From a bacterium (GTDB taxonomy: Bacteria > Bacteroidota > Ignavibacteria > Kapaibacteriales > Kapaibacteriaceae), in contig JAWXBR010000011.1 of the NCBI GenBank assembly GCA_034440235.1, positions 64,787 through 128,786 on the forward strand: a stretch of DNA of 64,000 nucleotides, in the 5' to 3' direction. The notes under the pieces are model-generated. The model worked only from the letters and a program-made list of their open reading frames with translations. It ran no database searches and was not told the DNA's origin. A program made the translations under genes and the position numbers. How positions within the stretch are numbered: the stretch's first letter is position 1; each line of letters opens with the position of its first letter. Shown piece by piece: positions 1,084 to 41,800 of this stretch.

Positions 1084-1512
1084 ATGAGTGACGGATTACA
1101 TAACTCAACACGCGCACCCGAACCTGTTGGGGCATATCCGCATGCACGGCGTGTTGGAAACCTACTGTTCCTGAGTGGTGTTGGACCACGTCAGCGAGGC
1201 ACGAAACAGATTCCTGGGGTGACGTTAACTGATGATGATGAAATCGAATCGTATGACATCACGGCGCAGACACTAAGTGTGTTTGCAAACGTGAAGGCAA
1301 TTCTCGAGGATGCAGGATCGACGTGGGAGAGTATTGTAGATGTAACAGTGTTTCTAACTGATATGAAACGTGATTTTAACGTTTTCAACAATCTGTATGC
1401 AGCACATTTCGAGCACGTTCAAGCGTGCCGCACAACCATTGAAGTCGGTGCATTGCCAACGCCTATTGCTGTTGAGCTAAAAGTCATCGCTACGATCGGG
1501 ACCCAACCATGA
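1084..1512 (+). CDS. RidA/YjgF/L-PSP family protein (reactive enamine/imine deaminase)
   Basis: 142 aa with typical RidA signature and length. It sits immediately downstream of the ALDH gene. Its stop overlaps the next start (ATGA). Confidence 0.75.
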   Translation: MSDGLHNSTRAPEPVGAYPHARRVGNLLFLSGVGPRQRGTKQIPGVTLTDDDEIESYDITAQTLSVFANVKAILEDAGSTWESIVDVTVFLTDMKRDFNVFNNLYAAHFEHVQACRTTIEVGALPTPIAVELKVIATIGTQP

Positions 1513-4500: not shown

Positions 4501-6302
4501 TGAAGCCGGGTGAATCTGCGGTCTATGTTGTTCAGTTCAATGGTGGAGTTGCCAACGTTCGTGTGCATACTGCCATCCTGAGTGTTCGAACCTCGAGCAC
4601 TAGGCAGAGTCAGCTCGATGTACCCGTAAGCGCAAGTCGTATATCATTGGGCCTTACAGGTCCGGCTGCTACAGATCTAGGTACAGTCGCCGTCGGCGCA
4701 ACCACCTCGCAGATCGTAACGTTTACGAATACCACAACGACGACGCTTAACATTTCAAATGTCACTTCGGGCATTCCGGTGTTTTCAATCACACCAACCA
4801 CAGGTACGGTGGCTGCTGGTGGAACGATAGATTTTACGATCGTGTTTGCGCCGCAAGGAGAAGGTGCATTTGCCGCAACGATCTGGATTGTCACCGACGC
4901 GCCGTGTCGAGACTCGGTGATGCTCGTAACACGAGGTGTTGGAGCAGCAGGTTCTATTAGCGCACCAAATAGCGTGTATTTTGGCACGCTTACAGATTGT
5001 GAGCAGCGCCTTGACAGTGTTACGTATGTGAACACAAGCGTGGTGCCTGTAGATTTAATCGACGTGAACATTGTCGGTGTAGCCAATCAACTCTTCACAA
5101 TTGTAAATCCTGCAGCAGCCACCAATGTGACGCTACCACCGAGCGGTAGTGCGACGGTTTATATAAACTTCAACCCTCGTTCGTACGCCGATGGTGCACG
5201 CACGGCACAACTTGTTTTACGCGTTCGATTGAATAATCAACCTGTGCCTTTTGTAACAACACTTACCGGCACACGGCGCACATCATTGCCAAGTACGCCT
5301 GTAGAGGTTGCGTTTGGTAGCATCGATATTGGTGCATCGAGTATGCAGCTAGTATCAGTTGTGAATTCGACGGCAACACCGGTGCGCATTACAAATGTGT
5401 TTCTGCGCAACACATCGTTCGGTACGATATCGATTGTACCTGCACCCGTGCCCAAGACACTTGCACCTGGTGAGCGTTTTGATGTACAAGTGACGTATGC
5501 GCCTGTTGCCCAGCAGAACAATGTGGACAGTATTGTCATTGCTTTTGACCAACCATGTCAGGATGAGCGTGTGATTCCCGTTAGTGGCACCGGCCGCCTA
5601 AACGTAGAGATTTCTGTGATTTTGCCAAAACACACCATGGATCCGGCAAGTGATAGTGAGACTCTTCCCGTAAAGGCTAAGGTTGCTGTAGGTAGCATAA
5701 ACCTAACAGGTGGTACGCTTCACATGACGATGCGCTATACGTCTTCTGTGTTTGTTGTTCAGTCGATTTCGCGCGGTACAATTATTCGGAACGAAGTAAT
5801 TGGTGGTCAAACATTCGTAGAAATTGAGATAGCTAATCTCGACGCAACAACCACTGAGAGTGTGATTTTCGAATTGCGTGGACAGGCCACCATCGGTCCG
5901 ATCGATTCTACCGACTTTGTTATTACGGATGCTTTTCTGGATGCAGGTTTCGTGGCGCCGACGGTGCGCCGCGAAGATGGATACTTAAAGCTTGCAGTTT
6001 GTGAGGAAGGGGCTAATCCACGTCTCATCATGCGCGGAACGCCTATGTCAATCCGTGTTTCTCCGAACCCCGTTAGCGACAACCTGAACATCGCGGTTGA
6101 TCTGACGGAAAAGGGGATACATACAGTCGAAGTAATAACGTTGATGGGTGAAGTAGTGAACTCGATGACATTCAAAGCGGACGCCACAGGTGCCGCATTT
6201 GAGCACGATGTTGATACGCGGAACATTCCGGCCGGAGCATATCAGGTGGTTCTGCAGACGCCGACGCGTCGACGCGTAACGACGCTTTCAATCATTCATT
6301 GA
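1509..6302 (+). CDS. Giant secreted cell-surface protein (1597 aa). It has a signal peptide, a Gly-rich low-complexity region, about 8 Ig-like (choice-of-anchor-D/ASH-like) beta-sandwich repeats and a T9SS C-terminal sorting domain.
   Basis: The N-terminal signal peptide ends ...TLAATAVQAQ. A GGGGGGGG/PGG-rich stretch spans about aa 230-480. The repeated motif ...SV.V.N.G...L.I... occurs many times. The C-terminal roughly 80 aa (NIAVDL...GAYQVVLQTP...) match the T9SS CTD pattern. Confidence 0.75.
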   Translation: MNNNSMTRPFLHTSKNKTFLVVVCVALTLAATAVQAQPRISYIIPDIGTTRFATYVEFIGPYNTTSNFGTDGFYSNNPSGSAVRVRPARVADSVYVKIGPCVVSWNGRMVSTHIFVTPAAAPNSDVWSLLNAQWRIPLIVEVNGVASAADTFYIVRPFAFGDRRTDTKRILGDGQLGLRSRRGAMIVDSMVLAGGGLYTVSTADCDLGTPGNQGYLPLVLITAKSVTGGSGAKIILSGNGADAGPGGGGGGGGYANKPFFGSGTKRGTPGGAGFTGGGPGGYNDNSGDGSKQAPGAGTGDVLLASSTNVDGSKSLNGTPGGESFFRIWENAGGGTGHPFGRSGMGCAGTSSCVPIPGHGGGSGYRNGDPGGGGGFFEDGAGGPLRGGLAHGNDVLVPLAGGSGGASGNPNSYDNTSGFGGGGGGALSFHAARIVNLDIEAHGATSNREDTKGGGGSGGGIIIGTRVNGGSSVFPQTNGLDDQPNFNRGGGGRKRYDTPISFTPAPPRGPYSDSLTAVLRTFSITGAGDGRPIEVWVRSESSTWTLNTTITAFSPSNSFINATITLPGTDSIFYVMYAQQSANPSGAQYSAIPSHVLSQSAWNILRIFGPTIIDAVQNVDLGVRRCPNSVLTKSITIYNRGESPLEVRTPTWLNSNGFRIVSPTVFPDTIKVRDSTTYVIEYSPLPGATGVINDVLVLSNNDPVSARSPYRINVTATVERIELNYTYKGEVRDTIDLGAVCLGSVISEIVTITNIGTTSTTVTSVRSLNPSVVNATTSVPALLAVGGTTTIQLGGSLRAVGASIVPIVVLVAECPQPDTVYVRFVGIEPNMVLIGTTQFADVRVGQTRQVLVEIRNDGSSDLRIDALPPVAAPFRIVSAVPAPPMTLKPGASTIVTFEYAPTAVGDDSATLELVSTVVGGSCGDTIVIALAGRGIQEALVLDKNQIVFGDVRSCETVVDSVRVTNNGTADVVLLYPGFLNGPDAASFSIILQPLVDDTLKPGESAVYVVQFNGGVANVRVHTAILSVRTSSTRQSQLDVPVSASRISLGLTGPAATDLGTVAVGATTSQIVTFTNTTTTTLNISNVTSGIPVFSITPTTGTVAAGGTIDFTIVFAPQGEGAFAATIWIVTDAPCRDSVMLVTRGVGAAGSISAPNSVYFGTLTDCEQRLDSVTYVNTSVVPVDLIDVNIVGVANQLFTIVNPAAATNVTLPPSGSATVYINFNPRSYADGARTAQLVLRVRLNNQPVPFVTTLTGTRRTSLPSTPVEVAFGSIDIGASSMQLVSVVNSTATPVRITNVFLRNTSFGTISIVPAPVPKTLAPGERFDVQVTYAPVAQQNNVDSIVIAFDQPCQDERVIPVSGTGRLNVEISVILPKHTMDPASDSETLPVKAKVAVGSINLTGGTLHMTMRYTSSVFVVQSISRGTIIRNEVIGGQTFVEIEIANLDATTTESVIFELRGQATIGPIDSTDFVITDAFLDAGFVAPTVRREDGYLKLAVCEEGANPRLIMRGTPMSIRVSPNPVSDNLNIAVDLTEKGIHTVEVITLMGEVVNSMTFKADATGAAFEHDVDTRNIPAGAYQVVLQTPTRRRVTTLSIIH

Positions 6303-8533
6303 CATACATGCGGCTATACATGCAGAATCGTTGCGTTGCCTTTTCGATAACACGTGGTGTTGTCCTTTCGATAACTCGTTATGTTGTCTTGTTTATAACC
6401 ATAGTTATGATGGCGACCGTGTCATGGGCACAGTCTAGTCGTCTGAATGAGTCGACAGGGCAGCGAGAAGAACTTCGTTTTTTGGTCGGTGGGTACGGAG
6501 CGTTGAGCATTAACCTGCACTCAGCCCCCTTCGGCGCCTTACCGGGCATACCATCATGCTGTCCGGAGTTTAAAGACGCAAGCTCACTTAGCCCTTCGTT
6601 TGGTGCTCTTCTCGAAGTCCCATTAATGTCGAGTCTTCGCGGTCAGATTAGACTTGGATACACGTCAATCGGTGGCAACCTGACCATTGGAGAGGTGATT
6701 GGAAATGAGCCTGTGCTGGATGATGGGCCAGCTCCTACACAAGCACGAAGGGATGTAACCGTCGAGCACTTTCTCGGTGCACCACTTCCGATGATTGCGT
6801 TAGAGCCTACAGTTGGATGGCGTGCACTAGATGTAATCTGGCTGAATTTCGGAGTTCGCGCTGGATACCTGATAGGCAAGAACATGGAGCAGAAAGAAAC
6901 ACTGCTTCTGCCAGAGGGATACACGTTTATCGATGGGACTGCGGTTCGTAACGAGTATGCCGGACCCATACCAGAGGCGAATGCACTGCAGCTACACGCA
7001 GTATTTGCTTTAGGCTACGAGCTTACAACACGAAGCAATCTTTCAATCGTTCCTGAAGTCAGGTACTATCTTCCGCTGACAGCAGTTTCAAGTGTAGACT
7101 GGCGCGTTCAGTCGTTTCAGATTGGTGTTTCTGTGCGTTACGGTGTGTACACACCCATCGACCCTGTCATCATCCGCGACACGGTGTACAAACGCGATAC
7201 GGTTGTTGCGCAGACACCAGGTATTCAACAGGACCGAATTACGCTCAAATCGTCGTCGACAGACGAGAGTACCAGACGTGAAGGCGATGTTGAATATCAA
7301 ACAACGACAATTACCGAAGAGTATCTGCGCGAGACACCAAAACCATTTGTGGCAACAGTAAAAGTGGTTGCACTAGCGCGTGACAAGAACGGGATACTGC
7401 AGCCACTCGACTCAATTAGAATTGAAGAGCTCGACGTAATAGAGAGTTATCCGCTGTTACCACAAATTTTCTTTGCAGAAGGAAGTGCTGAGCTAACAGG
7501 CACAACGCAAGCTCGGTTGCAAGGCAACGAAGCGAACACGTTTAAAATCGCAGACTTAACGCGTGACCAGTTAGATGTGTATCGCAATCTTCTGAACACA
7601 GTTGGCGATCGCATGCGCAAGAATCCGGCCACAGAGCTCAATATTGTTGGCTGCACAAATAACAGTGGAATAGAACAAAGCAACAAAGAGTTGTCGAAGG
7701 CTCGTGCAGAAGCTGTTAAGCAGTATCTCGTGACGAATTTTGGCATCGCAGCATCACGCTTGAATGTCAGCACACGTCAACTTCCATCAAGTCCAGCCAA
7801 TCCTACAACTGCCGATGGCAAGCAGGAAAATCAACGTGTTGAACTTTCAAGTAATGACCTCGCGCTGTTTGAACCTGTTGAGTTTCGTGATCGCGATCTG
7901 AAGGTCACTCCAGCCGAAGTAATATTGCGTTCAACGGTTACAAATGGCGATGACGTTTCGGCGCACTCTGCCTCTGTCGCACAGCGGACAAATGAAATGC
8001 TGAGTGTCGATGGTTCAGGACTCCCAACAGATATTTCATGGCGCACAGATAACGACGCCTCTAGACCACGCCTCGACGCATCAGTAGTAGCAAAGGTTAG
8101 TGTCCGTAACGCACAAGGCCTCAGCTCCGAGGGCAGTGTAACAATGCCTGTCGACTACGCCACGCTAAAGCTCATCAAATCACGTCAGGAAGAAGGCAAA
8201 CTCATCGAGCGCTATTCTCTTATCGTATTCGAATACAACAGCGCCCAGCTCAATGCATCGAATCAGCGGCTGATGAATAAAATCAAGGAGCGTATTCAGC
8301 CCGATTCACGTGTTACGATCACAGGCTACGCAGACCGTCAGGGTATGTCAGACTATAATCGCGAATTGGCCCGTCGCCGATGCGTAGAGGCACAACGTGT
8401 TCTCGGCCTCAAAGACAGTCAGGTGACGCTCGAACCTATCGGAAGCGATCGTCTCATCTTCAATAACGACCTTCCCGAGGGACGCTCCTACTCACGTACT
8501 GTGCAGATTGAGATCCAGACGCCGATCCGCTAA
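6299..8533 (+). CDS. Outer-membrane beta-barrel protein with two C-terminal OmpA-like peptidoglycan-binding domains. The start codon is uncertain.
   Basis: The ORF track start is a TTG overlapping the upstream stop. A signal peptide (...VLFITIVMMATVSWAQS) lies about 30 codons in. The N-terminal half has alternating beta-strands. There are two OmpA-like modules (NIVGCTNNSG...AEAVKQYL and ITGYADRQGMSDYNRELARRRCVEAQRVL). Confidence 0.65.
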   Translation: MTYMRLYMQNRCVAFSITRGVVLSITRYVVLFITIVMMATVSWAQSSRLNESTGQREELRFLVGGYGALSINLHSAPFGALPGIPSCCPEFKDASSLSPSFGALLEVPLMSSLRGQIRLGYTSIGGNLTIGEVIGNEPVLDDGPAPTQARRDVTVEHFLGAPLPMIALEPTVGWRALDVIWLNFGVRAGYLIGKNMEQKETLLLPEGYTFIDGTAVRNEYAGPIPEANALQLHAVFALGYELTTRSNLSIVPEVRYYLPLTAVSSVDWRVQSFQIGVSVRYGVYTPIDPVIIRDTVYKRDTVVAQTPGIQQDRITLKSSSTDESTRREGDVEYQTTTITEEYLRETPKPFVATVKVVALARDKNGILQPLDSIRIEELDVIESYPLLPQIFFAEGSAELTGTTQARLQGNEANTFKIADLTRDQLDVYRNLLNTVGDRMRKNPATELNIVGCTNNSGIEQSNKELSKARAEAVKQYLVTNFGIAASRLNVSTRQLPSSPANPTTADGKQENQRVELSSNDLALFEPVEFRDRDLKVTPAEVILRSTVTNGDDVSAHSASVAQRTNEMLSVDGSGLPTDISWRTDNDASRPRLDASVVAKVSVRNAQGLSSEGSVTMPVDYATLKLIKSRQEEGKLIERYSLIVFEYNSAQLNASNQRLMNKIKERIQPDSRVTITGYADRQGMSDYNRELARRRCVEAQRVLGLKDSQVTLEPIGSDRLIFNNDLPEGRSYSRTVQIEIQTPIR

Positions 8534-11825: not shown

Positions 11826-12584
11826 TTAGCGTACGACCTGTAGACGTGTAACCATTACACCTGAGGAATGCAGCATTCGCACCATGTACGTACCGTTTGC
11901 AAGTGCATCGAGTTGTGCCGGCACAATCATTTGTCCCTGAGGCATGCCAGTTGCGAGCGTCGCAACAACATTGCCGTTAAGATCAATGATATCTAGTGAC
12001 GACGATGGATCGTAGGAAGGAACGTCTATCAAGACTTCCGCAACATCCATCGCTGGATTTGGCGCAACAGCTACGTAAGCAGCAACGTTCGGTGAAGTTT
12101 CACCTGCGATTGCTGAACCTTCTGAAGGAATATTGTCTTTTACGCGCACAGAATTCGTTTCACCGCCACCAGAGCAGTTTACCCATACGCAATAATAGAT
12201 GCTACACTTCACAACCTTGCCCGTTGGCAATACGTCGTAAACGTCAATCGTAAAGCAAACTGGGTCCCACCACAAATCCCACCAATCCTTCGCGCCACTT
12301 ACGCTCTGCTTCGGATTTTTGAACGGGTAGGTGTGGGTAGTGCCTTGCTGACCAGATTCGTAAATGCGAATGAAGTTTGTGCCAGGTTTTACGTAGTCAA
12401 ACTTGAAATTCACACGGTACTTTTCACGGCCCTGAGCGTCTTGACCGAGGCACTCAACGTCGTACGTCCCGACGTTAATACACGTTGGCACGCCGCCAGG
12501 CGCTGCTTGCACCGAAGGTACTGTATAGGCAACGAATCCACAGACCAAGAGCAGAGTTATAAAATGTTTCATGACTGTCCTCAA
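11826..12584 (-). CDS. Small secreted Cys-rich protein with T9SS C-terminal sorting domain (paralog family member 1)
   Basis: Signal peptide. Conserved module C..C..KF..VK.GTNFIRIY..G.QG.T.TYPFK...CFTIDVYDVLP.GKVVKCS. The CTD ends ...NGTYMVRMLHSSGVMVTRLQVVR. Confidence 0.7.
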   Translation of the reverse strand: MRTVMKHFITLLLVCGFVAYTVPSVQAAPGGVPTCINVGTYDVECLGQDAQGREKYRVNFKFDYVKPGTNFIRIYESGQQGTTHTYPFKNPKQSVSGAKDWWDLWWDPVCFTIDVYDVLPTGKVVKCSIYYCVWVNCSGGGETNSVRVKDNIPSEGSAIAGETSPNVAAYVAVAPNPAMDVAEVLIDVPSYDPSSSLDIIDLNGNVVATLATGMPQGQMIVPAQLDALANGTYMVRMLHSSGVMVTRLQVVR

Positions 12585-12626
12585 AATTGAAAGAAATTAG
12601 ACGAATCGAGTTAGAGTTCGTAAGGA

Positions 12627-13304
12627 TTATCGAACGATTTGAAGTTGCTGAACGACCATGCCGTCTACGTGGAGCATGCGTACCATGTATACTCCGTTAG
12701 AAAGGTTCGGAAGATCTGCTGGAATAACGGTCGTGCCTGCAGCCATACCAGTAGCAAGTGTTGCAACCATATTGCCCGTCATGTCAACGAGTTCAATCGC
12801 TGAATTAGGGTCATACGATGGCACAGCAACCGAGATGTTCACAACGTCCATTGCCGGATTCGGGGCAAGGGTTAAGGAAGGGGTCGTTGGCATTTCACCT
12901 GCCACAACGTCTTTTGCAAACTCGAAACCACAGAACACAGGAACGCAGACTTCCGACGAACACTTCACAACCTTGCCGTTTGGCAGTACGTCGTAGACAT
13001 CAATGGTAAAGCACTGTGGACCAAAGCCGCCGCTAGAAGAAACAGTCTGCGAAGAAGTCTTAAACGGATAGGTAAATGTTGAACCCTGACTTCGACCCTG
13101 GTAGATTCGAATAAAGTTTGTGCCTGCCTTAACAGCACTGAATTTAAAGTTGACTGCAAATCCACCGTTATAGTAGCAGTCAACGGTGGTAGTCACCTCA
13201 TTAGCCGTTATACAATCGTTAGGTGCTTGACTCCAAGCCGAGGCCTGAACCGAACAGCATAGGCCAATAATTGCGACCGCCAAAAGATTAACGACAAATT
13301 TCAT
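12627..13304 (-). CDS. Small secreted Cys-rich protein with T9SS C-terminal sorting domain (paralog family member 2)
   Basis: It shares near-identical motifs with 11826-12584 (TNFIRIY, TYPFK, CFTIDVYDVLPNGKVVKCS). The CTD ends ...NGVYMVRMLHVDGMVVQQLQIVR. Confidence 0.7.
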   Translation of the reverse strand: MKFVVNLLAVAIIGLCCSVQASAWSQAPNDCITANEVTTTVDCYYNGGFAVNFKFSAVKAGTNFIRIYQGRSQGSTFTYPFKTSSQTVSSSGGFGPQCFTIDVYDVLPNGKVVKCSSEVCVPVFCGFEFAKDVVAGEMPTTPSLTLAPNPAMDVVNISVAVPSYDPNSAIELVDMTGNMVATLATGMAAGTTVIPADLPNLSNGVYMVRMLHVDGMVVQQLQIVR

Positions 13305-13360
13305 AAACGATGCCTTTCTGAGACGTGAGAGAGAGGTTTGAATGGTGCGAACATAAACAA

Positions 13361-13390
13361 AAAGGGTGACCGATTAAGTCACCCCTTTTA
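13361..13390 (-). terminator. Rho-independent terminator hairpin
   Basis: GGGTGAC-CGATTAA-GTCACCC stem-loop is flanked by A-run and T-run. It lies downstream of CDS 13453-14661 on the minus strand. Confidence 0.55.
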
Positions 13391-13452
13391 CGTAATCCAC
13401 AGGCTGTGTTTTTGAGCCTAGCACACGGTGTGTTAAGGCCACGTTTTTGAGC

Positions 13453-14661
13453 CTAGCGCACGATGCGTATCGGCTCGCTTATCAGGCCACCCGTATGGCG
13501 AAGGCGCAACATGTATGTGCCAGAGGCCATTCCGTGAAGGTTTGCGTTAACGGTCGTCTGACCGGCCTTGAGTCCTGAAGCAATTGTCGCAACAACCTGC
13601 CCGTTTAGATCGACGATGTCAACCGATGCATTGGCATCGTCGTATGGCATCGAGAGAATAACGTCAGTTTCGTCTGTTGCAGGATTCGGCACCGAAACAA
13701 CACTTGCAGCGGTTAGAATTACTGCTTCGTTGAGCGTGTTTGTATTGTCCGTACTGCCCGCGTTTCCTAGGTTGATACCTTGGTTCGGACCACCAGTACG
13801 GCACTTGCGGATGATGCGATAGCAGATGACGGTATCACAGCGCAGCTCTGGACAAATCAGTACTGTGTATTTCACGCAGAACTTGATTGTATCAGTACAT
13901 TCTATAACACGACTCGATGTGCTGACCGTCGGACATGCTGGAGGAAGATTGATAAGGATTTCGAATCCACGCTTTGGATTAAAACGAACACATGGATCGA
14001 ATTTCCAGAGAGCAATATTGCCTTCGATGTGAGGTCCGTCTACACCCTTAATAGCAGCACGAGAGATTTCTGTACGAATCGGTTGCCATGCAGACCTTTC
14101 GGTGTTTGAACAAACGCGACGATGACTTGCATCGACAACTTCCATTTGAACTGCACCAACACCGAACGGAGAAAATCCTAGTGCGCCCGAGAGTATGATG
14201 TCTTCACCATTTGAAGCGAGGTGCGGACGTGCTTCGATAGACTTGCGCACGTCACTGCATTTTGGAGCACAACGTGGCAATTCAATACATTTTTCAACGC
14301 GACAAAGTTTGCGTCTTCCGTCTTCTGTCATGTTATAAACTGTAAATGTAAAGCAAGCCTTGAGTGAGTTGCCTACATGTACATAACGAAACACTTGTTC
14401 TTCATTTTCGAGTGGAAGTTTGTAGGTGGTCGTTCCTACATGTCCAGTTTCCGACGATATATAGAGTACATCGCCTTCTTTGTTAATGTCTGTTGCATGA
14501 AACTTGATGACATACCGAGGTCTGCCATCAGCGTTAAAACCCGCACACTCCGCAGTAATCGAGCGGAGACTGATGCAAGGCTGGTCTTCTTGTGCTTTGA
14601 CTGCCGCCGACATCGCGACGGCAAGACTACACAGTAACAGGGTTTTCACAACACGATTCAT
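13453..14661 (-). CDS. Secreted Cys-rich protein with T9SS C-terminal sorting domain (larger relative of the two small paralogs)
   Basis: Signal peptide. The N-terminal module has the same Cys spacing (C..C...Y.IKF...CFTFTVYN....C....C). There is an extra Cys-pair-rich middle region. The CTD ends ...SGTYMLRLRHTGGLISEPIRIVR. Confidence 0.65.
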   Translation of the reverse strand: MNRVVKTLLLCSLAVAMSAAVKAQEDQPCISLRSITAECAGFNADGRPRYVIKFHATDINKEGDVLYISSETGHVGTTTYKLPLENEEQVFRYVHVGNSLKACFTFTVYNMTEDGRRKLCRVEKCIELPRCAPKCSDVRKSIEARPHLASNGEDIILSGALGFSPFGVGAVQMEVVDASHRRVCSNTERSAWQPIRTEISRAAIKGVDGPHIEGNIALWKFDPCVRFNPKRGFEILINLPPACPTVSTSSRVIECTDTIKFCVKYTVLICPELRCDTVICYRIIRKCRTGGPNQGINLGNAGSTDNTNTLNEAVILTAASVVSVPNPATDETDVILSMPYDDANASVDIVDLNGQVVATIASGLKAGQTTVNANLHGMASGTYMLRLRHTGGLISEPIRIVR

Positions 14662-27158: not shown

Positions 27159-28076
27159 CTAGTTGTGTCGGCGAGCTAACAGGAAACGACGTGCTGGATT
27201 CGCCGATCGCAATTCAAGCAATTGCGCATCAACTGCTGTCTTTTGGGTCGCATCACGTTTGATCCCATTCTTAGTTTCAATTTCCAACTTGTTTTCTGTT
27301 GTTGCAAAAACATGGTACGGCACGCTCACCAGATCGTCGAACGAAAGCTTACCGTAGGCGTTGATTGTTGCATACGTCACCATGGACATCCCATCCGTAG
27401 CCACCTTGTGGCTGCCCCTTGCCGTCATCGAATACTGTAACTGACGAAATGCACGTCCGACGGTGTCCACCTTATCGAGTACTCTCCAGAGAGTGAGGTG
27501 ACCAATGACGGCTGGCGGTATGCCGTTTTCTGTCAGTTCAACCGTGTCTTCGGCTATCCAGCTCTGATTCTGTCGCCCGCAAGACTCTCCTAAAGGGGGC
27601 AGAAGAAAGGGGCTGAACGGACCTCCTGGGTGTATGGCAATGACATCTGGGAGTGTTACAGCTGCGTATGAGCGCTTGCCCACAGTGTCCATTACAAACG
27701 TCACCACACGGTCGACCCAAGGATGTGTTGGCCGCTCGACCGTTGTATCAACGGTGCCCTGACGTTCAACCGACGACGTCATAATCTGACGAAGCCAGAA
27801 TGTCGAAGTCGTTGCACTATCGCATATCACAAGTACTCTCGACTTACGAAGTTTGAGAATACGTCCCTGACCCTGCACCCATAAACTGTCGCGCGCATCG
27901 ATATCATAAACAAGTGTATCACCTGTTTCGAACTTATAGGCAAAACACAAGGTGTCCTTCCCGAGTGGGGCAGGTTGATAACCTTCTTGAAGTTGAATCT
28001 GTGCACTAACAGGTACACAGAGGAGCAGAGCCATCCAGAGTACTGCGGTGCGTGCAATAGCCTGAGGCTGAGTCAT
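27159..28076 (-). CDS. Secreted protein of unknown function (305 aa) inside the efflux operon
   Basis: Signal peptide (...LLLCVPVSAQ). No recognisable family. It overlaps the upstream ORF by 1 nt. Confidence 0.5.
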   Translation of the reverse strand: MTQPQAIARTAVLWMALLLCVPVSAQIQLQEGYQPAPLGKDTLCFAYKFETGDTLVYDIDARDSLWVQGQGRILKLRKSRVLVICDSATTSTFWLRQIMTSSVERQGTVDTTVERPTHPWVDRVVTFVMDTVGKRSYAAVTLPDVIAIHPGGPFSPFLLPPLGESCGRQNQSWIAEDTVELTENGIPPAVIGHLTLWRVLDKVDTVGRAFRQLQYSMTARGSHKVATDGMSMVTYATINAYGKLSFDDLVSVPYHVFATTENKLEIETKNGIKRDATQKTAVDAQLLELRSANPARRFLLARRHN

Positions 28077-30793
28077 CAGGGGATACGATTGTATGTTGTA
28101 CGTACTTCGGTGCGAGACGGAATGACGTTCTGCTCAGGACCCTGCAGCGTAATGCGCATGTTCATAATTGTCTTGATATCTGCAGACAATGGCATACCAG
28201 TCTGCGCATCAACAAGGTATGTGCCTTCGAGTGTACCAGAACCCGAGAGGTCGATAGGGCTGCCGTGTTTGCGCATCTCGCCATTCAGCGACACGTCTGG
28301 TGATGCTACGGTAAGTCGCACAAGTTTACGGTTGTTTGAGTCGAGCGATTCTGCATACGTACAGTTCATGGTCAACGTTGTAATAAGAATGCCTTTTTTC
28401 AAATCGAGGTCTTGCGTATCGCGAATCTCCGATGTCCAAGTATCACCCTTCGATGTTTTACCTACGTCGTATGGCGGAAATAAGAGCCTCAAGCCATTGA
28501 TAACGCCACCACTCATGCTCGTGGTTAGCGAGCCTGAGTTGGTACTTGCATCGTCGTAAAGACGTTCTGTTCCCAGTATGGCGCCCGTCGACGTCATTGT
28601 AAGCCTGTCCTTTGTTGAGATGAGGTCGGTCGTAGGAATGGCATTGGTTTCGATCATAGCCTCGTCAACACCATTCGAAGACATGTGCATATAAGCAGTG
28701 TCGTACGAAACGTCAAGCGTATACTGCTTAAGCACAGCTTCTTTTACCTTGACATGTGTGATAGTTCTGAAGTTGGATGTTGTCGCAATCTCTTTGTTCA
28801 TCGCCGTTATCTTCTGCATCACACGAGTGTTTGTTGCATAGTCATACGTCGTGGCGGGCTTCAGTCGGTACTGAAGTTGTCCGTGGGCTGACATCGACAC
28901 AACGGCCATTAAAAAAGGCACAAGCAGAGCAATGATTGTACGAACGGGTGACGCATCTGCGGCTTCACGTTTTTTGGCGCGCTGACGCATTGTCGAGTCG
29001 AGAATTTTTTTGCGTAAACGAATATTGAGCGGTGTGACTTCGAGCAGTTCATCGTCTTCGAGGAACTCTATGCTTTGTTCGAGCGACAACTGACGTGGTG
29101 TATCGAGTTTTACAATACCGTCAGACCCCGAAGCACGCATGTTTGTGAGCGCCTTCATCCTGCAAGCATTTACGCTCAGATCGTCCTCGCGCGCATTTTC
29201 ACCGATAATCATGCCTTCATAGATAGCAATGCCGGGTCCGACAAACAACGAGCCCCGCTCCTGCACCATTTCAAGTGCGTACGGTGTCGACGTGCCGGTT
29301 TCCATAGACACAAGAGCGCCCTTGGCGCGACCACCGATTGGACCCTTGTATTTTTCCCATGCGTGGAATGTGTGGTGCAGGACACCCGTACCGCGCGTTG
29401 ATGTAAGGAACTCTGTACGGAAACCAATGAGACCACGAGCAGGGACAAGGAATTCGCAACGGATGACGTCGAGCGATGGGTTCATCGCAGTCATTTCGCC
29501 CTTGCGCTTCCCAAGGTTCTCAATAACGGTACCAACATTGGCCTCGGGCACGTCGATGGTAACGTGTTCGATAGGCTCGAGCAGTTTGCCATCAGCATCG
29601 CGACGGAAGAGAACTTCCGGACGTGATACAGCGAACTCAAAACCTTCACGACGCATGGTTTCAATAAGAATAGCAAGCTGCAACTCGCCACGTCCAGAGA
29701 CCTTGAACACGTCTGCAGAATCGGTGTCCTCTACGCGCAGCGATACGTTCATGCGTAGCTCGCGATAGAGGCGCTCACGAAGCTTTGGTGTCGTAACAAA
29801 CTTGCCTTCACGTCCAGCCAGCGGCGAAGTATTCACAAGGAAGTACATCGCAATCGTAGGCTCTTCGATATCTACGTACATCAACGGTTCGGTGATGGAC
29901 GTGTCGCAGATCGTTTCGCCGATGTACACGTTTTCAAATCCAGAAAGGGCAATGATGTCGCCCGCCCCTGCCTGTGGTGTCTCGATGCGTGCAATGCCTT
30001 CGTACACATACATCTTTGTAACGCGAGCCGTTTCGCGCTTCCCGTCCGGCTTAATCAGAGCAACGTTGTCGCCAACCTTGAGCTGTCCGGTCTGAATGCG
30101 GCCAACAGCAATACGACCAACGTAATCGCTCCACTCCAACGCGCTAATCACCATCGCAAACGGAGCATCATCGTCCACCGTCGGTGGAGGTATAAATTTC
30201 ATTACTGCATCGAGCAAGGGCTCGAGTGTTTCGGAAGGGTCGTCAAGGGTCTTCTTTGCAATGCCGAGTTTTCCGATTGCATAGATAATCGGAAAGTCGA
30301 GCTGCTCGTACGTTGCACCGAGACCGATAAACAATTCCATGATTTCGTCGAGCACTTCTGCCGGACGTGCATCGCTACGATCGATCTTGTTAATCACCAC
30401 AATTGGTGCAAGCCCCATCTCCAGCGCCTTACGCAACACAAAGCGTGTTTGAGGCAACGGACCTTCGGCGGCGTCGACCAACAGCAATACCCCGTCGACC
30501 ATCGAGAGCACCCGCTCTACCTCGCCACCAAAGTCAGAGTGACCAGGTGTGTCGAGGATGTTGATCTTAGTGTCGCGCCAATGAACGGAAGCGTTCTTGG
30601 CCATGATCGTAATGCCTTTTTCTCTTTCGAGATCGTTCGAATCCATCACACGTTCGGCAACAACTTGGTTGTCGCGGAACGTTCCACTTTGGCGCAGCAT
30701 GTGATCTACAAGCGTTGTTTTGCCGTGATCCACATGCGCAATGATTGCAATGTTTCGGATGTCAGTTCTTGTTCTGGATGCCATAGCCGACAA
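28076..30793 (-). CDS. typA: Translational GTPase TypA/BipA (aa 1-610) continuing in-frame without a stop into a 295-aa domain. That domain starts with a Met-less signal-peptide-like segment and has unknown function.
   Basis: The TypA portion has G1-G5 motifs ([19 protein letters not shown]) and ends ...[27 protein letters not shown] at about 28964. Downstream, the same frame encodes ...[23 protein letters not shown] plus a roughly 270-aa hydrophilic domain. There is no in-frame ATG before the hydrophobic segment. Confidence 0.7.
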
Positions 30794-30891: not shown

Positions 30892-31440
30892 ATGAGACTC
30901 TGGTCTAAATACTCCTTGATTGCCCTTTTAACGGTAATCAGCTCTAGCGCAGGTATTGCAGGCGAGTGGCACGCAAGTGTCACAGGTAAATCTCAGGGGA
31001 AGTTTCCTGGTGCTGCAAAAGGATCGCCCCACGCAGGAAAAATTCCTGTACTCACTTTCGATTATGAACTCAAGGCGCCCCGTGATATTGCTACTGGTCA
31101 AACTACAGGCAAGCGTCAGCATAAGCCAATCCGTATCATCAAGGAATGGGATGCTACAACGCCAATGTTTCTAACTGGTATTGTGAACGGTGAGACCTTG
31201 ACCGAGGTTGTTCTGGAGTACTGGGAAGAGGATGATTCTGGTGAAAAGGTTATGACGTTCAAAATCACATTAACCGACTGTCTAGTAACGACCGCTGCAC
31301 AAGGAGATCCTGTTCATGGTGTCGATGTAAAACTCGGCGCCAAGATGCAGGAGATCATTGAAATGACATACAGCACATTAGATTTCGAGCACTTGCAATC
31401 AAAGAAGACAATTCGTGACGCATGGCCTACGGGAAGGTGA
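30892..31440 (+). CDS. Hcp1-family (T6SS tube protein-like) fold protein with an N-terminal Sec signal peptide
   Basis: Signal peptide (MRLWSKYSLIALLTVISSSAGIAGE). After it, the sequence aligns motif-by-motif with Hcp: HAGKIPVLTFDY, GKRQHKPIRIIKEWDATTPMFLTGIVNGE, VMTFKITLTDCLVTT. Confidence 0.6.
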   Translation: MRLWSKYSLIALLTVISSSAGIAGEWHASVTGKSQGKFPGAAKGSPHAGKIPVLTFDYELKAPRDIATGQTTGKRQHKPIRIIKEWDATTPMFLTGIVNGETLTEVVLEYWEEDDSGEKVMTFKITLTDCLVTTAAQGDPVHGVDVKLGAKMQEIIEMTYSTLDFEHLQSKKTIRDAWPTGR

Positions 31441-31444
31441 TATC

Positions 31445-32215
31445 ATGAAAACACTTCTGACAAAACTCGTTGCAGTCGCTTTCGTCTTAATTGTTTCGAT
31501 TCCTGCTGCGGCCCAAGACTCGCTTGATGTGATTGTTCTGCAAGGTGTCTTAATGACTGCCAATGGTACGCCACGTCCCGATGGCAATTACTCAATCTCA
31601 GTCAGCCTGTTTGACGTACCAAACGGCGGATCGCCGATTAGTACGGTCACGAACGTTTCCGTCAAACAAGAGTTCGGCGCCTTTGCGGCCGAACTAAGCA
31701 GAGCTATTGTGTGGCCGCATATGCATCAACTAGGCAAGAGAACAATCGATCCGAAAATGTCTCTATGGTGGAGTGTCTCAATTGACGGCGCAGAACTGAA
31801 GCCGCGATTGCGCATTGCAGCTGTACCGTTGGCATCAACGGCCCGCTACGCCGAAAAAAGTGCTGGTGAGATTCCAGTTGGTAGCATCATACCTTTCGCG
31901 GGTGATACATCAGCTATGCCGAGCGGATGGCTAGTGTGCGATGGAAATCTTGTGAGCGCTGTTGAGTATCCGAGTCTCGCCATGGTCATCGGAACTCGCT
32001 ATAATGACGATGGTGGCGAAGCCGCAGAGATGTTTCGGCTGCCCGATTTACGTGGAATGGTTGTAGTCGGAATGGGCACAAATAGACTAGGTGATCCGGT
32101 TGTTCTCGATGCGCCTAGTTTACCCGCTCAAGGTAATGCGAGCAGAGCAAGCCAGCGCAACGTAAATGCTGGGCTTCCTCAGATCGAATTGCTCTACATC
32201 ATTCGTGCGTGGTAA
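31445..32215 (+). CDS. Phage tail-collar fibre domain protein (MdpB / microcystin-dependent-protein-like) with a signal peptide
   Basis: Signal peptide, then the canonical tail-collar motif GSIIPFAGDTSAMPSGWLVCDGNLVSAVEYPSLAMVIGTRYNDDGG...FRLPDLRGMVVVGMG. The start lies 4 nt after the stop of the Hcp-like gene. Confidence 0.7.
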   Translation: MKTLLTKLVAVAFVLIVSIPAAAQDSLDVIVLQGVLMTANGTPRPDGNYSISVSLFDVPNGGSPISTVTNVSVKQEFGAFAAELSRAIVWPHMHQLGKRTIDPKMSLWWSVSIDGAELKPRLRIAAVPLASTARYAEKSAGEIPVGSIIPFAGDTSAMPSGWLVCDGNLVSAVEYPSLAMVIGTRYNDDGGEAAEMFRLPDLRGMVVVGMGTNRLGDPVVLDAPSLPAQGNASRASQRNVNAGLPQIELLYIIRAW

Positions 32216-32217
32216 AC

Positions 32218-32703
32218 ATGCGTTACCTACTGCTCCTACTCCTGGTTACAAGCACATCCGTTTCCGTTTGCGCTCAATCTGCGGCGAGGCTCGGTCACGC
32301 ATCTACAGATTCGCTCATGGCAGCGGGCGAAATGCGTGCGCGCATCGTAGTCAGTGGCTCCGTGACTGGGCTGCGAACAAGTGAGTCGACAGCCTGGTTT
32401 GGCTTTCTTCCTCTCGGTGGCTTTACGCCTGCTTCGGTATTCGAAGAAGCGTTGTCGTTGCAACTCCATGCAACTCCTACTCCAGCCACCGATGTGTTGC
32501 GAATTACGCTGCCCACAGTGTTGCAAAGTCAGTCTACCAGATGGCGGCTTCTCGATGTAAAAGGACTCGAAGTGCTACGGTCAGATGCGCTGATTACAAA
32601 CGATTTTACGATCGATGTTACTGCGTTGGCAACTGGAACGTACAGTTTGGTCGTTGAATGTCGTGGATTGCGAGCATTCGCACGAGTGGTCGTGCTTCAC
32701 TAG
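32218..32703 (+). CDS. Small secreted protein with T9SS C-terminal sorting domain (about 160 aa)
   Basis: Signal peptide (MRYLLLLLLVTSTSVSVCAQS). The C-terminal roughly 75 aa fit the T9SS CTD pattern (...RLLDVKGLEVLR...LATGTYSLVVE...ARVVVLH). The start overlaps the upstream stop. Confidence 0.55.
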   Translation: MRYLLLLLLVTSTSVSVCAQSAARLGHASTDSLMAAGEMRARIVVSGSVTGLRTSESTAWFGFLPLGGFTPASVFEEALSLQLHATPTPATDVLRITLPTVLQSQSTRWRLLDVKGLEVLRSDALITNDFTIDVTALATGTYSLVVECRGLRAFARVVVLH

Positions 32704-32732
32704 CGGTTCTCGTCATTCGTTAACAGAATTTA

Positions 32733-34682
32733 CTATCGGTATAGCGCGTCCTCTCGAACGCTTATCCCGATCTGACTCAGCAGCACAGGGTTGCAACGGC
32801 GTACCCAGTCGCCGTGCAGCTCTGTGGCTATGGTGTCCTTGCTGCTCAAACTAATCTGAAGCAGTGCAAAGTGACTTCGTATGTCGCACGGATCGATCGC
32901 AATGGCCCTCGAGTAATTCGCAATCGCGGTGTCGATGTTCTTTCGAGCCATTGCGATGTCGGCAATAAACTGGTAGGGCTGAGCAATATTCGTTGGACCG
33001 TCAGCAGCCATGGTTCTGAACATTTCTTCGGCTTTGCCCTGCGTCGCAGATGCATCAACCAACGTCAATGCCTTTGGATACGTTAGAAGCGCCTGTATCT
33101 GCAACGCCGTTAGACTGGTGCGCTGCTGAGGCGAACGCTTTAACACCGCATCGGGTTTACGCCTGAACATCGATTGCAGATTGTTCGTGCCTGACAGGTT
33201 GTAGTAAAACACGTAGTAATCGACATACATCTGCCGTGCCCACAATGCACGCTCGGCAAAAGCACTTGGTTTTATTCCGGTCGAAAACACGATAAAGTCA
33301 GGTTTGCGCGAGAGCACATAGTCTGCATTGTATTTGCGCTCTTTCCACGTCACACTTGAATCGTTACTTACTTCTGGAATGGAAAGGGGCTGCGTTGCTA
33401 TTGTTCTGTCCGTTAGCCCAAGCATGTCAACTACCGTCTGCTTCGAAAAATACTTCAGTGCCCCAATGGTTGTTGCGGCGATGGTATACGTTCGTTCATT
33501 GAGCGCTGCACTTCGCTTCAGCCATTCGCCAGTGCGTTTCATTTTAGAAACGAGCTCCTGCTCGAATTTCGAAGTCGTTGCAATTGCATCTCGCTCTGTA
33601 GTGAACGCAAATGCGCAAGTCACGATAGTAAACAAAGCAACAAAGAGCATGCGCTGTCTGAGAACAAGGTAACTGCCCACGGGCAGCAACACTGACAGAA
33701 TAAGCTGCACTGGAATCAAGAAGCGTTGATGACGCAATACGTCGCCACCTAACACTACAACAGCACACGTCCATAACGCAGCAAGCAACACCACCAGCAG
33801 CACCTCGCGATTGCGCACATACCATGCAGCGGCAACAATCGGCACAAATGCAACGCCCCAGAGCCACACGTTTGTGATGTGTGAGGCGAGGTATTCGAGT
33901 CCGGACCCAATCTGATCGTAAACAAATCCGGTTTTCGCAGCGAAGGTGTTTGGGAGCAGGGCGTCGTACGAAAACCATCGCCAAGCAGTTAGAGCGAGCA
34001 ACGTGCCCCCTAACAACGCCCCTTGCAGGAGAAGCTGTCGGGTAAGGGTCGTACGAGAAAGGGGCTGTTCGTCTACTGAATCTTTGTTGCGGAGTGTGAC
34101 GAGCAGACGGGCTGCGAATAAGATGCCAACGACGAGCATGGCTTCTGGACGTGTGAGAAGCAAGAGCATGCCAAGTGCAACCCACCTGTACGATTGTGGT
34201 GCAACAAGGAAGGCTTCGAGTGTGAGTGCTACGAGGAGCCAGAAGAACGGCGCTTCCATGGCAGAGGCAGACCAGTACTGCACTGCCGCAGTCGAAGCGA
34301 AGAAGAGTGGGGCGAGGAGAGCGAGCCAGGGGACAACGGTTTCGGCGGTGCCTGCGTGACGCAGCATGCGTTGCGCGATGCGAAAGAGTGGTACCAGCGT
34401 GAGCATGGTGCACGCTATTCCGACTATCTGAAGCGCTGTTGCGACGTCGCGAATGCCAATCGAAATTAGTAGTGCTGAGAGCAGCGTCCATGTCAGCGAT
34501 GTAAAACCTTCGACATGTTCACCGATGTTGAACACCAGACCGTGTCCGTCGACCAGGTTGCGTGCATACGTAAGCGTGATGTACGCATCGTCCTGCACAA
34601 AACGCATCGACCATGCACACGCAGCGAACGCAATGCATATACAAGCAAGCACAGCATACGGAAGAGTCCGAATAAGTGTCAT
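32733..34682 (-). CDS. Polytopic membrane protein, putative GT-C fold glycosyltransferase (ArnT/PMT-like) with C-terminal TPR repeats
   Basis: At least 10 N-terminal TM helices with a DDAYI motif in the first loop. A C-terminal soluble domain carries TPR-like repeats (AIANYSRAIAIDP...). Confidence 0.45.
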   Translation of the reverse strand: MTLIRTLPYAVLACICIAFAACAWSMRFVQDDAYITLTYARNLVDGHGLVFNIGEHVEGFTSLTWTLLSALLISIGIRDVATALQIVGIACTMLTLVPLFRIAQRMLRHAGTAETVVPWLALLAPLFFASTAAVQYWSASAMEAPFFWLLVALTLEAFLVAPQSYRWVALGMLLLLTRPEAMLVVGILFAARLLVTLRNKDSVDEQPLSRTTLTRQLLLQGALLGGTLLALTAWRWFSYDALLPNTFAAKTGFVYDQIGSGLEYLASHITNVWLWGVAFVPIVAAAWYVRNREVLLVVLLAALWTCAVVVLGGDVLRHQRFLIPVQLILSVLLPVGSYLVLRQRMLFVALFTIVTCAFAFTTERDAIATTSKFEQELVSKMKRTGEWLKRSAALNERTYTIAATTIGALKYFSKQTVVDMLGLTDRTIATQPLSIPEVSNDSSVTWKERKYNADYVLSRKPDFIVFSTGIKPSAFAERALWARQMYVDYYVFYYNLSGTNNLQSMFRRKPDAVLKRSPQQRTSLTALQIQALLTYPKALTLVDASATQGKAEEMFRTMAADGPTNIAQPYQFIADIAMARKNIDTAIANYSRAIAIDPCDIRSHFALLQISLSSKDTIATELHGDWVRRCNPVLLSQIGISVREDALYR

Positions 34683-40273: not shown

Positions 40274-41260
40274 GTGCAGTTGCATTTACTCAACAGCGGT
40301 CAACCGACCATAATGCTTACAAACAATTTTGGCACGGGGTCATGTATCACTGATGTAAACGGCACATTAAGCCTTTACGAGGGTACTGCTCGGTATTCAG
40401 CCCAAGAGGTACCTTACGACTTCTCGTTAGTTGCACATGCAACGGCCGGTAATCTATTACTAAGTACACGTAATTACGATAAGGCCATCCAGTTCGCTAC
40501 AACGCCAACAATCGGAGCAGACGACATCGTACGCTTGATCATAAAACCGTCGGGCTATGTTGGCATCAATCAATCTGACCCAAAGGAGCTACTTCAGATC
40601 GGCCATCTAATGACGTTTAATGAATATGGGTTCATGGGATTCAATGCCTATTGGGATGGGTCAAACATGAAGAACATGTACGCAAATAGGGCATCAGTAA
40701 CGATGGGTCTCGGAGATGCTCGCGTTGGTATACCAGAGCTGTTTGTAATAAATGTCGATGAACAGTCTACAAGTAATGCAACAATATTCGGCACGTTTAA
40801 AGGTATGTGTATCAGTACAGTGGGTGACATGGGTGTTGGCACACTAGCGCCAAAAAGTAAACTTCACGTATTTGGGGATGTTACTATTGGAGTAGATCGG
40901 TGTACAGCTTCTGTTTCTTCGGGTATTAACTATCGCTTGAGCGTTGATGGTGCAATCTTTGCAAAAGAAATTTGGGTTAAAGTATCCGATTGGGCCGACT
41001 ACGTCTTTGATCCTAACTACAACCTGATGCCATTGGCCGATCTGCAGGATTTCGTTAATGAGAATCGACATCTTCCTGGCGTGCCAAACGCAGAAGAAGT
41101 AGCGAAAGATGGGATTTCTGTGAGTGAGGTGCAGAAGAATCTGTTGTTGAAGGTCGAGGAGTTGACACTGTATATACTTCAGTTGTCAAAACAAAATGAA
41201 ACTCTTCAACAGGAGTTTGCGGCGATCAAAAAGCAGTTATCTGCGCAATCGTCCAAGTAG
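40274..41260 (+). CDS. Tail-fibre-like domain protein, of the Bacteroidota cell-surface tail fiber domain-containing type. It may be N-terminally truncated.
   Basis: Repeats GYVGINQSDPKELLQI / GVGTLAPKSKLHVFGDVTI. Conserved C-terminal module ...AKEIWVKVSDWADYVFDPNYNLMPLADLQDFVNENRHLPGVPNAEEV...KVEELTLYILQL plus a coiled coil. No signal peptide at the annotated start. Confidence 0.5.
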   Translation: MQLHLLNSGQPTIMLTNNFGTGSCITDVNGTLSLYEGTARYSAQEVPYDFSLVAHATAGNLLLSTRNYDKAIQFATTPTIGADDIVRLIIKPSGYVGINQSDPKELLQIGHLMTFNEYGFMGFNAYWDGSNMKNMYANRASVTMGLGDARVGIPELFVINVDEQSTSNATIFGTFKGMCISTVGDMGVGTLAPKSKLHVFGDVTIGVDRCTASVSSGINYRLSVDGAIFAKEIWVKVSDWADYVFDPNYNLMPLADLQDFVNENRHLPGVPNAEEVAKDGISVSEVQKNLLLKVEELTLYILQLSKQNETLQQEFAAIKKQLSAQSSK

Positions 41261-41323
41261 TTGCACTGCCGCAGTAAGACTTCACCTCAGCGATTATTGT
41301 GTTCCAACCGACGGAGTCGAATT

Positions 41324-41800
41324 ATGCTAAACAAGTGTCTTACTGCTCTGATTGTGTTCGGAGTAATCATCTTCTGCCTCGAAGCATGCAGCCCTCCATT
41401 TGCACCAGAAATCGATGGGGTAGTCTCTATCCAGTATGTCTCAGCATCACCGCAGTTCGGATCCCAGACATTAACGGTGGACAGCAGTAGTATTCGATAC
41501 ATCAAATACGTTCCGAATTACCCTCCATTTTCGAGGGACACAGTTGTTCAGGACTCAGTGTTTCTGGTGGCAACTTTGACGAAAGTTAATATGGTATTAA
41601 TACTGCTTCAAAACGATGCGGTCGACCCAGGCGTATTGCGACTCGACGGTGGATATAGCATCATGACGATAATTTATCGGCGAAAATCGGATTTACAGGA
41701 GACGACAAAGATTGTTAAATACACAGATCCTCCGCCATCCAGTCTACTCATACTTGATCATGCGATGGTCGAGAAATTGATTCAAATTCATGACAATTAA
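41324..41800 (+). CDS. Lipoprotein of unknown function
   Basis: Signal peptide plus lipobox (VIIFCLEACSPP). The ORF track start at 41261 probably over-extends. Confidence 0.4.
   Translation: MLNKCLTALIVFGVIIFCLEACSPPFAPEIDGVVSIQYVSASPQFGSQTLTVDSSSIRYIKYVPNYPPFSRDTVVQDSVFLVATLTKVNMVLILLQNDAVDPGVLRLDGGYSIMTIIYRRKSDLQETTKIVKYTDPPPSSLLILDHAMVEKLIQIHDN

Follow-up and report, generated by a model that had tools for sequence, protein, structure and literature searches.

A conserved three-gene operon joining a signal-peptide-bearing Hcp-family protein, a phage tail collar protein and a small protein with a type IX sorting domain: probably a cell-envelope or surface module

The tube protein Hcp (TssD) is regarded as a hallmark of the T6SS (type VI secretion system), and in the cytoplasm the T6SS Hcp chaperones small effectors in its lumen. 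In the part of the literature covered here, no description was found of an Hcp that bears a signal peptide, is periplasmic or is independent of a T6SS, nor of a module that joins a phage tail collar protein with the T9SS (type IX secretion system) or MdpB with Hcp. Here we describe three genes, the open reading frames (ORFs) ORF1, ORF2 and ORF3, on a 64,000-nucleotide stretch of contig JAWXBR010000011.1 from a bacterium of the Kapaibacteriaceae (hereafter the window, meaning the whole stretch that was analysed). They encode, respectively, an Hcp-family protein, a protein with a phage tail collar domain and a small protein ending in a T9SS C-terminal sorting domain (CTD), each with a signal-peptide-like N-terminus. 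ORF1-ORF2-ORF3 is a conserved three-gene operon, and it probably specifies a module of the cell envelope or surface that had not been described before and that is made of parts taken over from phage tails.

The membership of ORF1 in the Hcp family was established with curated profiles, as it matched Pfam T6SS_HCP (PF05638) at 4.6e-20 (72.6 bits, cut-off 23.5) and NCBIfam TIGR03344 (TssD) at 85.9 bits (cut-off 58.9), with Hcp3 (3he1, 3.8e-13) being the closest solved structure; NCBI names the protein 'MAG: type VI secretion system tube protein TssD [bacterium]' (MDZ4744885.1), where MAG stands for metagenome-assembled genome. Its Hcp domain has the loop QGDPVHGVDVKLGA and the conserved loop APRDIATGQTTGKRQHKP. 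The alignment to classical signal-less Hcps begins only at about residue 23, so that ∼22–24 extra residues precede it, which combine a basic start with a hydrophobic core (maximum 2.41 over 10 residues on the Kyte-Doolittle scale). Reading of the sequence found no in-frame start codon near residue 23, and all complete ORF1 homologues in the conserved trios carry an equivalent N-terminus. The initial annotation had read an Hcp fold with a signal peptide at this gene, and both parts hold: PF05638, TIGR03344 and the solved Hcps match the product of 30892–31440, and the N-terminal extension is hydrophobic and conserved, the signal peptide being a heuristic call. Judged by its sequence, ORF1 belongs to the Hcp family yet appears to fail the functional definition of a T6SS Hcp, namely a cytoplasmic protein in a T6SS context; it is an Hcp-family protein that probably works outside any T6SS context.

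Both kinds of ORF1 loop also occur elsewhere. The most conserved Hcp loop, SPRDxASGxxTGKRxHKP (ORF1 residues 54–82, window 31051–31137), turns up on its own, in tandem repeats, in giant signal-peptide proteins (P0007–P0015, P0018, P0025, P0124 and P0139 in our protein numbering), with 30 matched stretches in P0007 (3375 amino acids, aa); the repeats alternate with GDVDGDG-type motifs, and several of the giant proteins have a C-terminus in common (...HDTVKNSIGNIR). The loop QGDPVHGVDVKLGA (ORF1 residues ∼136–150, window ∼31297–31341) is present in one or two copies in other signal-peptide Hcps (loop set P0002, P0004–P0006 and P0024), and ∼9 copies of it were counted in P0024, a secreted protein of 460 aa.

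ORF2 matched the phage tail collar family PF07484 at 9.2e-18 (64.4 bits, cut-off 24), and its nearest solved relatives are the T4 gp12 short tail fibres (1pdi, 1ocy and 5iv5). The likeness to tail fibres is confined to the collar and what follows it: the phmmer alignment between ORF2 and gp12 ends at residue 213, a profile (A6) of 14 ORF2-like proteins matched the short tail fibres at 8.7e-20 over profile positions 134–284 only, and the PHROG tail-fibre families cover only residues ∼135–215 of ORF2. The N-terminal ∼130 residues found no sequence match in Pfam or in the PDB. The N-terminal domain is nevertheless kept across 14 collar proteins from several phyla, is absent from 80 collar matches on viral contigs, and was modelled by AlphaFold2 as beta strands with a predicted local distance difference test score (pLDDT) of 56–79. 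On the other side of the collar, the C-terminus consists of a short variable insert and an LYIIRAW strand (residues 246–256), so that ∼40 residues between the collar end (206) and this strand occupy the position of the gp12 head domain. Among ORF2 relatives the same segment ranges from ∼35 to ∼120 residues while the N-terminal domain is conserved, which fits a docking end combined with a variable tip. A fold search with the ORF2 model returned weak tail-fibre matches and generic beta-sandwiches. The N-terminus has the basic start and hydrophobic core of a signal peptide and an end of the A-x-A type (AAA ahead of QD). Of the earlier description of ORF2, the secreted tail-collar protein stands, by PF07484 and the signal peptide, whereas the likeness to gp36 gives way to gp12, the source of the solved relatives; the 'receptor-binding motif' ascribed to it has to be dropped, as the collar is a trimerisation element and ∼40 residues replace the gp12 head. 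The MdpB likeness that was also mentioned would be that of COG4675, and bacterial 'MdpB-like / tail fiber protein' homologues count with gp12 among the closest known proteins.

ORF3, at NCBI 'hypothetical protein SGJ05_02670' (MDZ4744887.1), reached 28.6 bits against Pfam Por_Secre_tail (PF18962, cut-off 27) over residues 87–149. A profile of seven ORF3 homologues matched solved T9SS CTDs, namely those of mirolase (8qb1, 4.9e-7) and NucA (8glk), and Foldseek with the model of the ORF3 CTD (pLDDT ∼60–84) retrieved 8glk_D (template modelling score 0.80 normalised to the target), 8gl6_D and 8qb1; the model superposes on CTDs bound in the SprA translocon. The signal peptide, MRYLLLLLLVTSTSVSVCA ahead of QS, shows a basic start, a hydrophobic maximum of 2.48 and an A-x-A-type end (VCA before QS), and is kept in the family. 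Between signal peptide and CTD the mature protein has a short part of ∼50–65 residues, with a motif kept in 12 ORF3-like proteins. ORF3 looks like a bona fide, minimal T9SS cargo. The protein of about 160 residues with a T9SS CTD that had been proposed here is accordingly confirmed at 161 aa by PF18962, the family profile and the fold match, TIGR04183 staying below its cut-off.

The signal peptides of all three proteins were judged by heuristics, i.e. a basic start, the 10-residue Kyte-Doolittle maximum (2.4, 3.5 and 2.5 for ORF1, ORF2 and ORF3), A-x-A ends and conservation in homologues, and the complete homologues of ORF1, ORF2 and ORF3 in the related loci all have signal-peptide-like N-termini. 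Sec-type signal peptides on all three products suggest that these would be made for the cell envelope and not for the cytoplasm. The genes are tightly packed, with 4 nt from the ORF1 stop to the ORF2 ATG and 2 nt from the ORF2 stop to the ORF3 ATG. The initial annotation gave the first gap correctly; the overlap that it placed at the second junction arises only if an upstream GTG at 32209 is taken as the ORF3 start. By sequence reading, the ORF1 ATG has a GGAGG 4–8 nt upstream. Neither a terminator-like site nor a promoter-like site above shuffle expectation was found between the three genes, and no terminator-like site lies within them. The GC content of the operon (0.50–0.52) is the same as in the remaining window. 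Upstream lies a divergent BipA/TypA gene and downstream a convergent gene for a membrane/TPR-like protein of 649 aa.

Features of the ORF1-ORF2-ORF3 operon, in window positions
Feature	Positions	Strand	Description
ORF1	30892–31440	+	182 aa; Hcp/TssD-family protein with N-terminal Sec-type signal peptide (predicted)
ORF1 signal-peptide-like N-terminus	30892–30963	+	MRLWSKYSLIALLTVISSSAGIAG; from hydrophobicity, alignment and conservation
ORF1 Hcp domain	31003–31392	+	residues 38–167; PF05638 profile positions 7–129 of 129
ORF2	31445–32215	+	256 aa; collar-domain protein with signal peptide (predicted secreted)
ORF2 signal peptide	31445–31513	+	MKTLLTKLVAVAFVLIVSIPAAA, followed by QD; hydrophobic maximum 3.53; A-x-A end; kept in homologues
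ORF2 N-terminal domain	31526–31819	+	residues ∼28–125; motif QG.L....G.P..DG.Y..V.L.D
ORF2 phage tail collar domain	31880–32062	+	residues 146–206; aligned to gp12
ORF3	32218–32703	+	161 aa from ATG; signal peptide, hairpin region and T9SS type-A CTD
ORF3 mature N-part	32275–32427	+	residues ∼20–70; predicted beta-hairpin; motif ..VV.G...G.......W.GFLP
ORF3 T9SS C-terminal sorting domain	32476–32700	+	residues 87–161; Pfam, family profile and fold search

Word-indexed protein searches gave only 6, 7 and 8 homologues, and the family was exposed by an exhaustive representative search (2514 Hcp-family matches at E ≤ 1e-3) together with scans of the related loci (numbered L001 onward). The order Hcp then collar was found to recur in ∼9 divergent lineages. 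Next to the window itself stand L002–L007, which are the window locus at 99–100% identity in several microbial-mat metagenome assemblies, and L001, an 87%-identical relative with the third gene and an identical ORF1 protein. Collar homologues at 51% (L011) and 35% identity (L012/L013) lie in the same gene order as in the window, and genome scans with the collar alignment yielded full trios in L014, L016, L021 and L031, the last with two Hcp genes. Through the signal-peptide Hcp P0026, which is 36% identical to ORF1, a further locus (L202) was reached, where the Hcp gene overlaps by 4 nt a collar gene whose product has a signal peptide and the same N-terminal domain. Three loci are cut by contig ends: in L202 the contig stops after the collar gene, a metagenome scan gave Hcp, collar and then the contig end (L176), and a genome scan gave a contig start followed by a collar gene and an ORF3-like gene (L017). 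The third gene was found in the window, L001, L011, L012/L013, L014, L016, L021 and L031. Counted by lineage, six of the ∼9 have it, and in the remaining three the contig breaks off before it. Identities to the window proteins span 21–39% for ORF1, 26–53% for ORF2 and 19–33% for ORF3, and intergenic distances across the trio copies lie between –4 and 18 nt. In the flanks of the related trios, whose genes are unrelated between lineages, neither T6SS nor phage genes were seen. The low identity and the unrelated flanks across lineages indicate a self-contained conserved module, and the co-conservation that the initial annotation had left to be checked is thereby present, in the same order in ∼9 divergent lineages.

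Several observations on individual copies are recorded here. Compared with window 32722–34027, L001 5752–7051 shows a deletion of ∼165 bp and a rearranged downstream gene (316 aa versus 649 aa), which may reflect strain variation or an assembly chimera. The MAG records of L016, L017, L021 and L031 are labelled 'uncultured Hyphomicrobiales' or 'Bradyrhizobiaceae' despite T9SS-type CTDs and Bacteroidota-like outer-membrane genes (OMP_b-brl_3 with CarboxypepD_reg), suggesting that these labels are unreliable. Mobility, considered on account of the seemingly differing contexts of an identical Hcp, found no support, since the upstream same-strand gene in L004–L006 is a spurious ORF and L002–L007 are one locus.

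Pfam scans covering nearly the whole 64 kb, i.e. ∼30 kb on each side of the operon, detected no T6SS, capsid, terminase, integrase, sheath or baseplate families. The initial annotation had likewise seen no T6SS, capsid, terminase or integrase gene nearby and had called the locus neither a T6SS locus nor a prophage; that call is upheld, with no flanking T6SS or prophage genes in the scanned range. What the window does encode are transporters, FeoAB, an RND efflux system, glycine dehydrogenase, RecR, PspA and OmpA-family proteins, as well as at least four other Por_Secre_tail proteins. A tblastn search with ORF1 against GenBank phages produced two weak partial matches only, and the 80 viral contigs with collar proteins share the collar segment alone, with neither an Hcp nor an ORF3 neighbour.

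The wider families place the two larger proteins in a broader setting. Among the 131 listed Hcp hits of ≤260 aa, 63 have a signal-peptide-like N-terminus, 55 are without one and 13 are ambiguous; as judged from these N-termini, signal-peptide Hcps also exist away from this locus and appear to make up about half of the nearest short relatives of ORF1. The neighbourhoods of five of them taken from outside the trios (P0005, P0006, P0026, P0029 and P0036) contain no T6SS genes, and one of the five has a collar partner; in L009, three Hcp paralogues stand in tandem. The idea that signal-peptide Hcps form a single clade found no clear support, as on a crude neighbour-joining tree of 127 sequences the signal-peptide state does not group cleanly, requiring 33 changes against 41 for shuffled labels (minimum 32). 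Proteins with PD40, in part CarboxypepD_reg, and OmpA domains adjoin signal-peptide Hcps at three unrelated loci (L008 8214–9605, L009/L010 6094–7614 and L016 7429–9447); the PD40+OmpA architecture resembles the T9SS component PorE, and the adjacency may have arisen by chance, given how widespread proteins of this kind are in the phyla concerned.

Bacteroidota, Verrucomicrobiota and further groups commonly encode collar proteins with a signal peptide and the conserved N-terminal domain. In seven Bacteroidales MAG loci from rumen or gut (L022, L023, L028, L030, L035, L042 and L051), a collar gene (∼310 aa) is directly followed by a giant T9SS-CTD gene (1300–1780 aa), and in L059, L063 and L073 it is followed by a small ORF3-like gene; in L026 (Limisphaerales), seven collar paralogues stand in tandem and a CTD gene is absent. 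Since collar genes are repeatedly followed by T9SS-CTD genes, the recurrent pairing is that of a secreted collar protein with a T9SS cargo, and Hcp joins this pairing in one sub-lineage.

The anatomy and the conservation of the operon are solid, and from them we infer a function for its products. Sec would carry ORF1, ORF2 and ORF3 across the inner membrane, whereupon the T9SS translocon would recognise the ORF3 CTD, export ORF3, cleave it and link it to the surface like a type-A cargo. The short hairpin of ORF3 could then serve as anchor or adaptor for an ORF2 trimer, which would dock by its conserved N-terminal domain and turn its collar and its short, variable C-terminal insert away from the cell, as a tip that binds ligands, while ORF1 might form an Hcp-type ring acting as a scaffold or chaperone that joins the parts. 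As ORF1 and ORF2 are without a C-terminal sorting domain, the model requires that they exit the periplasm in complex with ORF3. Such an assembly would be likely to serve in adhesion or in recognition on the cell's surface and not in injection. The model is supported by the collar loci elsewhere that are paired with T9SS cargo and by the other CTD proteins in the window, and the tethering of a collar trimer and an Hcp ring by T9SS-anchored ORF3 seems to us plausible, if somewhat short of an even chance. The earlier statement that the module is re-routed to the cell surface is accordingly narrowed: the T9SS signal is on ORF3 only, and ORF1 and ORF2 are candidates for Sec export whose arrival at the surface would follow from the model. 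A broader proposal, which we consider rather unlikely in its full extent, is that an appendage which lies outside the cytoplasm and needs no T6SS arose by the domestication of Hcp rings and gp12-like collar trimers, that Sec exports it and a minimal T9SS cargo carries or anchors it, so that CTD-less partners would hitch-hike through the T9SS, and that signal-peptide Hcps constitute an unrecognised periplasmic or surface class with a biology of its own.

A number of points weigh against a surface assembly of this kind. The interactions, localisation and oligomeric state of ORF1–ORF3 are themselves deduced, and we know of no established mechanism by which CTD-less partners hitch-hike through the T9SS. 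No T9SS core genes were seen in the window, and ORF3 scored 17 against TIGR04183, under the cut-off of 23. The structural models are poor, the ORF2 model having an overall pLDDT of 52 and the strands 42–53 and 58–65 predicted by AlphaFold2 in the ORF3 N-part a pLDDT <50. A docking hairpin in common with the N-terminal ends of the giant CTD proteins from Bacteroidales found no support, as a hidden Markov model of 12 hairpin sequences found ORF3-like proteins only. Furthermore, signal-peptide Hcps also occur solitarily, with neither collar nor CTD partner, and an Hcp neighbour is present at 4 of the 78 genome collar loci, so Hcp may be accessory to the collar module and not its core.

The main alternative is an account in which the Hcp ring remains periplasmic, where it holds or protects ORF2 and/or ORF3 as a chaperone before T9SS export, with only ORF3, or nothing else, reaching the surface. 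ORF1 and ORF2 have signal peptides and no CTD, as this account would have it; the orphan signal-peptide Hcps in many contexts suggest a general periplasmic job, the PorE-like genes adjoin signal-peptide Hcps in L008, L009/L010 and L016, and an analogy may be drawn with the cytoplasmic Hcp that binds small effectors in its lumen. However, it would be odd to retain in the periplasm a collar trimer of the gp12 kind whose tip is variable, and the strict Hcp-collar-CTD order in ∼9 lineages suggests a stoichiometric complex and not a general chaperone; taken together, we hold purely periplasmic work of ORF1 to be unlikely.

The same parts could instead be released, as a soluble tailocin- or bacteriocin-like or lectin-like complex binding other cells, for which their derivation from phage tails, the RHS/YD-repeat-like genes that adjoin L059 and L063, and the general knowledge that T9SS type-A cargo is sometimes released rather than anchored may be adduced. 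None of the trio loci was found to contain a gene for a toxin, for immunity or lysis, or for a sheath or baseplate, though, the PADLOC defence models gave no match to the three proteins at E ≤ 0.01, and the mature N-part of ORF3 has only ∼65 residues, all of which makes a released particle quite improbable in our judgement. Since Hcp and collar domains usually belong to a T6SS or a phage, and NCBI names ORF1 TssD, one might finally think of a decayed T6SS or prophage remnant, or of chance neighbours with start codons mis-called into 'signal peptides'. Such an origin is hardly credible against intact ORFs in constant order in ∼9 lineages at 20–50% identity with unrelated flanks, hydrophobic N-termini that are conserved and have no alternative start codon, a base composition typical of the window and 64 kb free of T6SS or phage genes.

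The surroundings of the operon in the window offer a few further observations. The initial annotation had listed a further tail-fibre-like protein at 40274–41260, which is barely supported: it has no Pfam match and a marginal PHROG tail-fibre match (E ∼1e-3 over 35 aa), and no evidence was found that links it to the operon. Its product has 328 aa and ends in ...WADYVFDPNYNLMPLADLQDFVNENRHLPGVP and then a coiled coil; the gene lies in a segment of low GC content (40274–41800, + strand; 0.449 versus ∼0.51), is followed by a small lipoprotein-like ORF, and an AAA_14/DUF4143 gene adjoins. The BipA/TypA GTPase ORF (28076–30793, – strand) has 905 aa and reads on past BipA_C without a stop into a hydrophobic, signal-peptide-like segment of 22 residues and a region of ∼280 aa with a weak DUF6263 match; an equivalent ORF of 902 aa is present in L001, and the extension could be a real fusion or contain an internal translation start. 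At 1509–8533, a T9SS-CTD protein of 1597 aa with Ig-like repeats is followed by an overlapping gene for an OmpA-family protein of 744 aa, and three consecutive small Por_Secre_tail genes occupy 11826–14661. The source organism evidently invests heavily in T9SS cargo.

Returning to the proposed surface or envelope module, its interest lies partly beyond this operon. If many Sec-exported Hcps sit in T6SS-free contexts, counts of Hcp genes overestimate the presence of T6SSs, and the tube fold serves a second purpose, outside the cytoplasm; the trio is a small, concrete case of this, with three genes in 1.8 kb, clear export signals and a T9SS-linked partner. Should it be true that CTD-less partners leave together with ORF3, this would amount to a T9SS route for the export of protein complexes, and would explain in what way the many secreted 'tail fiber protein' products of Bacteroidota and related phyla arrive at the surface.

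Compared with the T6SS Hcp/TssD proteins, such as Hcp3 of P. aeruginosa (3he1), ORF1 is of the same family over the whole domain, including the loop PRD..TG..TGKRQHKP. It differs in its Sec-type signal peptide, T6SS Hcps being made and loaded in the cytoplasm; in the lack of any T6SS core gene, both in the 64 kb here and beside five other signal-peptide Hcps; and in its partners, a collar protein and a T9SS cargo taking the place of VgrG and TssBC. With T4 gp12, the ORF2 family shares the collar and the C-terminal return strand, which align at the profile level with gp12 residues 339–526, whereas ORF2 has a signal peptide and a non-phage N-terminal domain, only ∼40 residues and no head domain at the position of the receptor-binding head, and a gene outside any tail gene cluster. 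ORF3 has in common with T9SS type-A cargo proteins the signal peptide and a beta-sandwich CTD at the extreme C-terminus; unlike them, it carries a passenger of ∼65 residues that contains neither an enzymatic nor an adhesin domain, gives the impression of an adaptor and not of a conventional effector, and shares its operon with two secreted proteins that lack a CTD. Tailocins and extracellular contractile injection systems likewise combine a tube-protein fold with a tail-fibre-type protein outside a phage. They are assembled in the cytoplasm and released by lysis, whereas the products of ORF1–ORF3 would be exported singly by Sec and the T9SS, and the locus is without sheath, baseplate, spike, tape-measure and lysis genes. 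The folds of this operon are known ones, and what would be new is their export route and their partnership.

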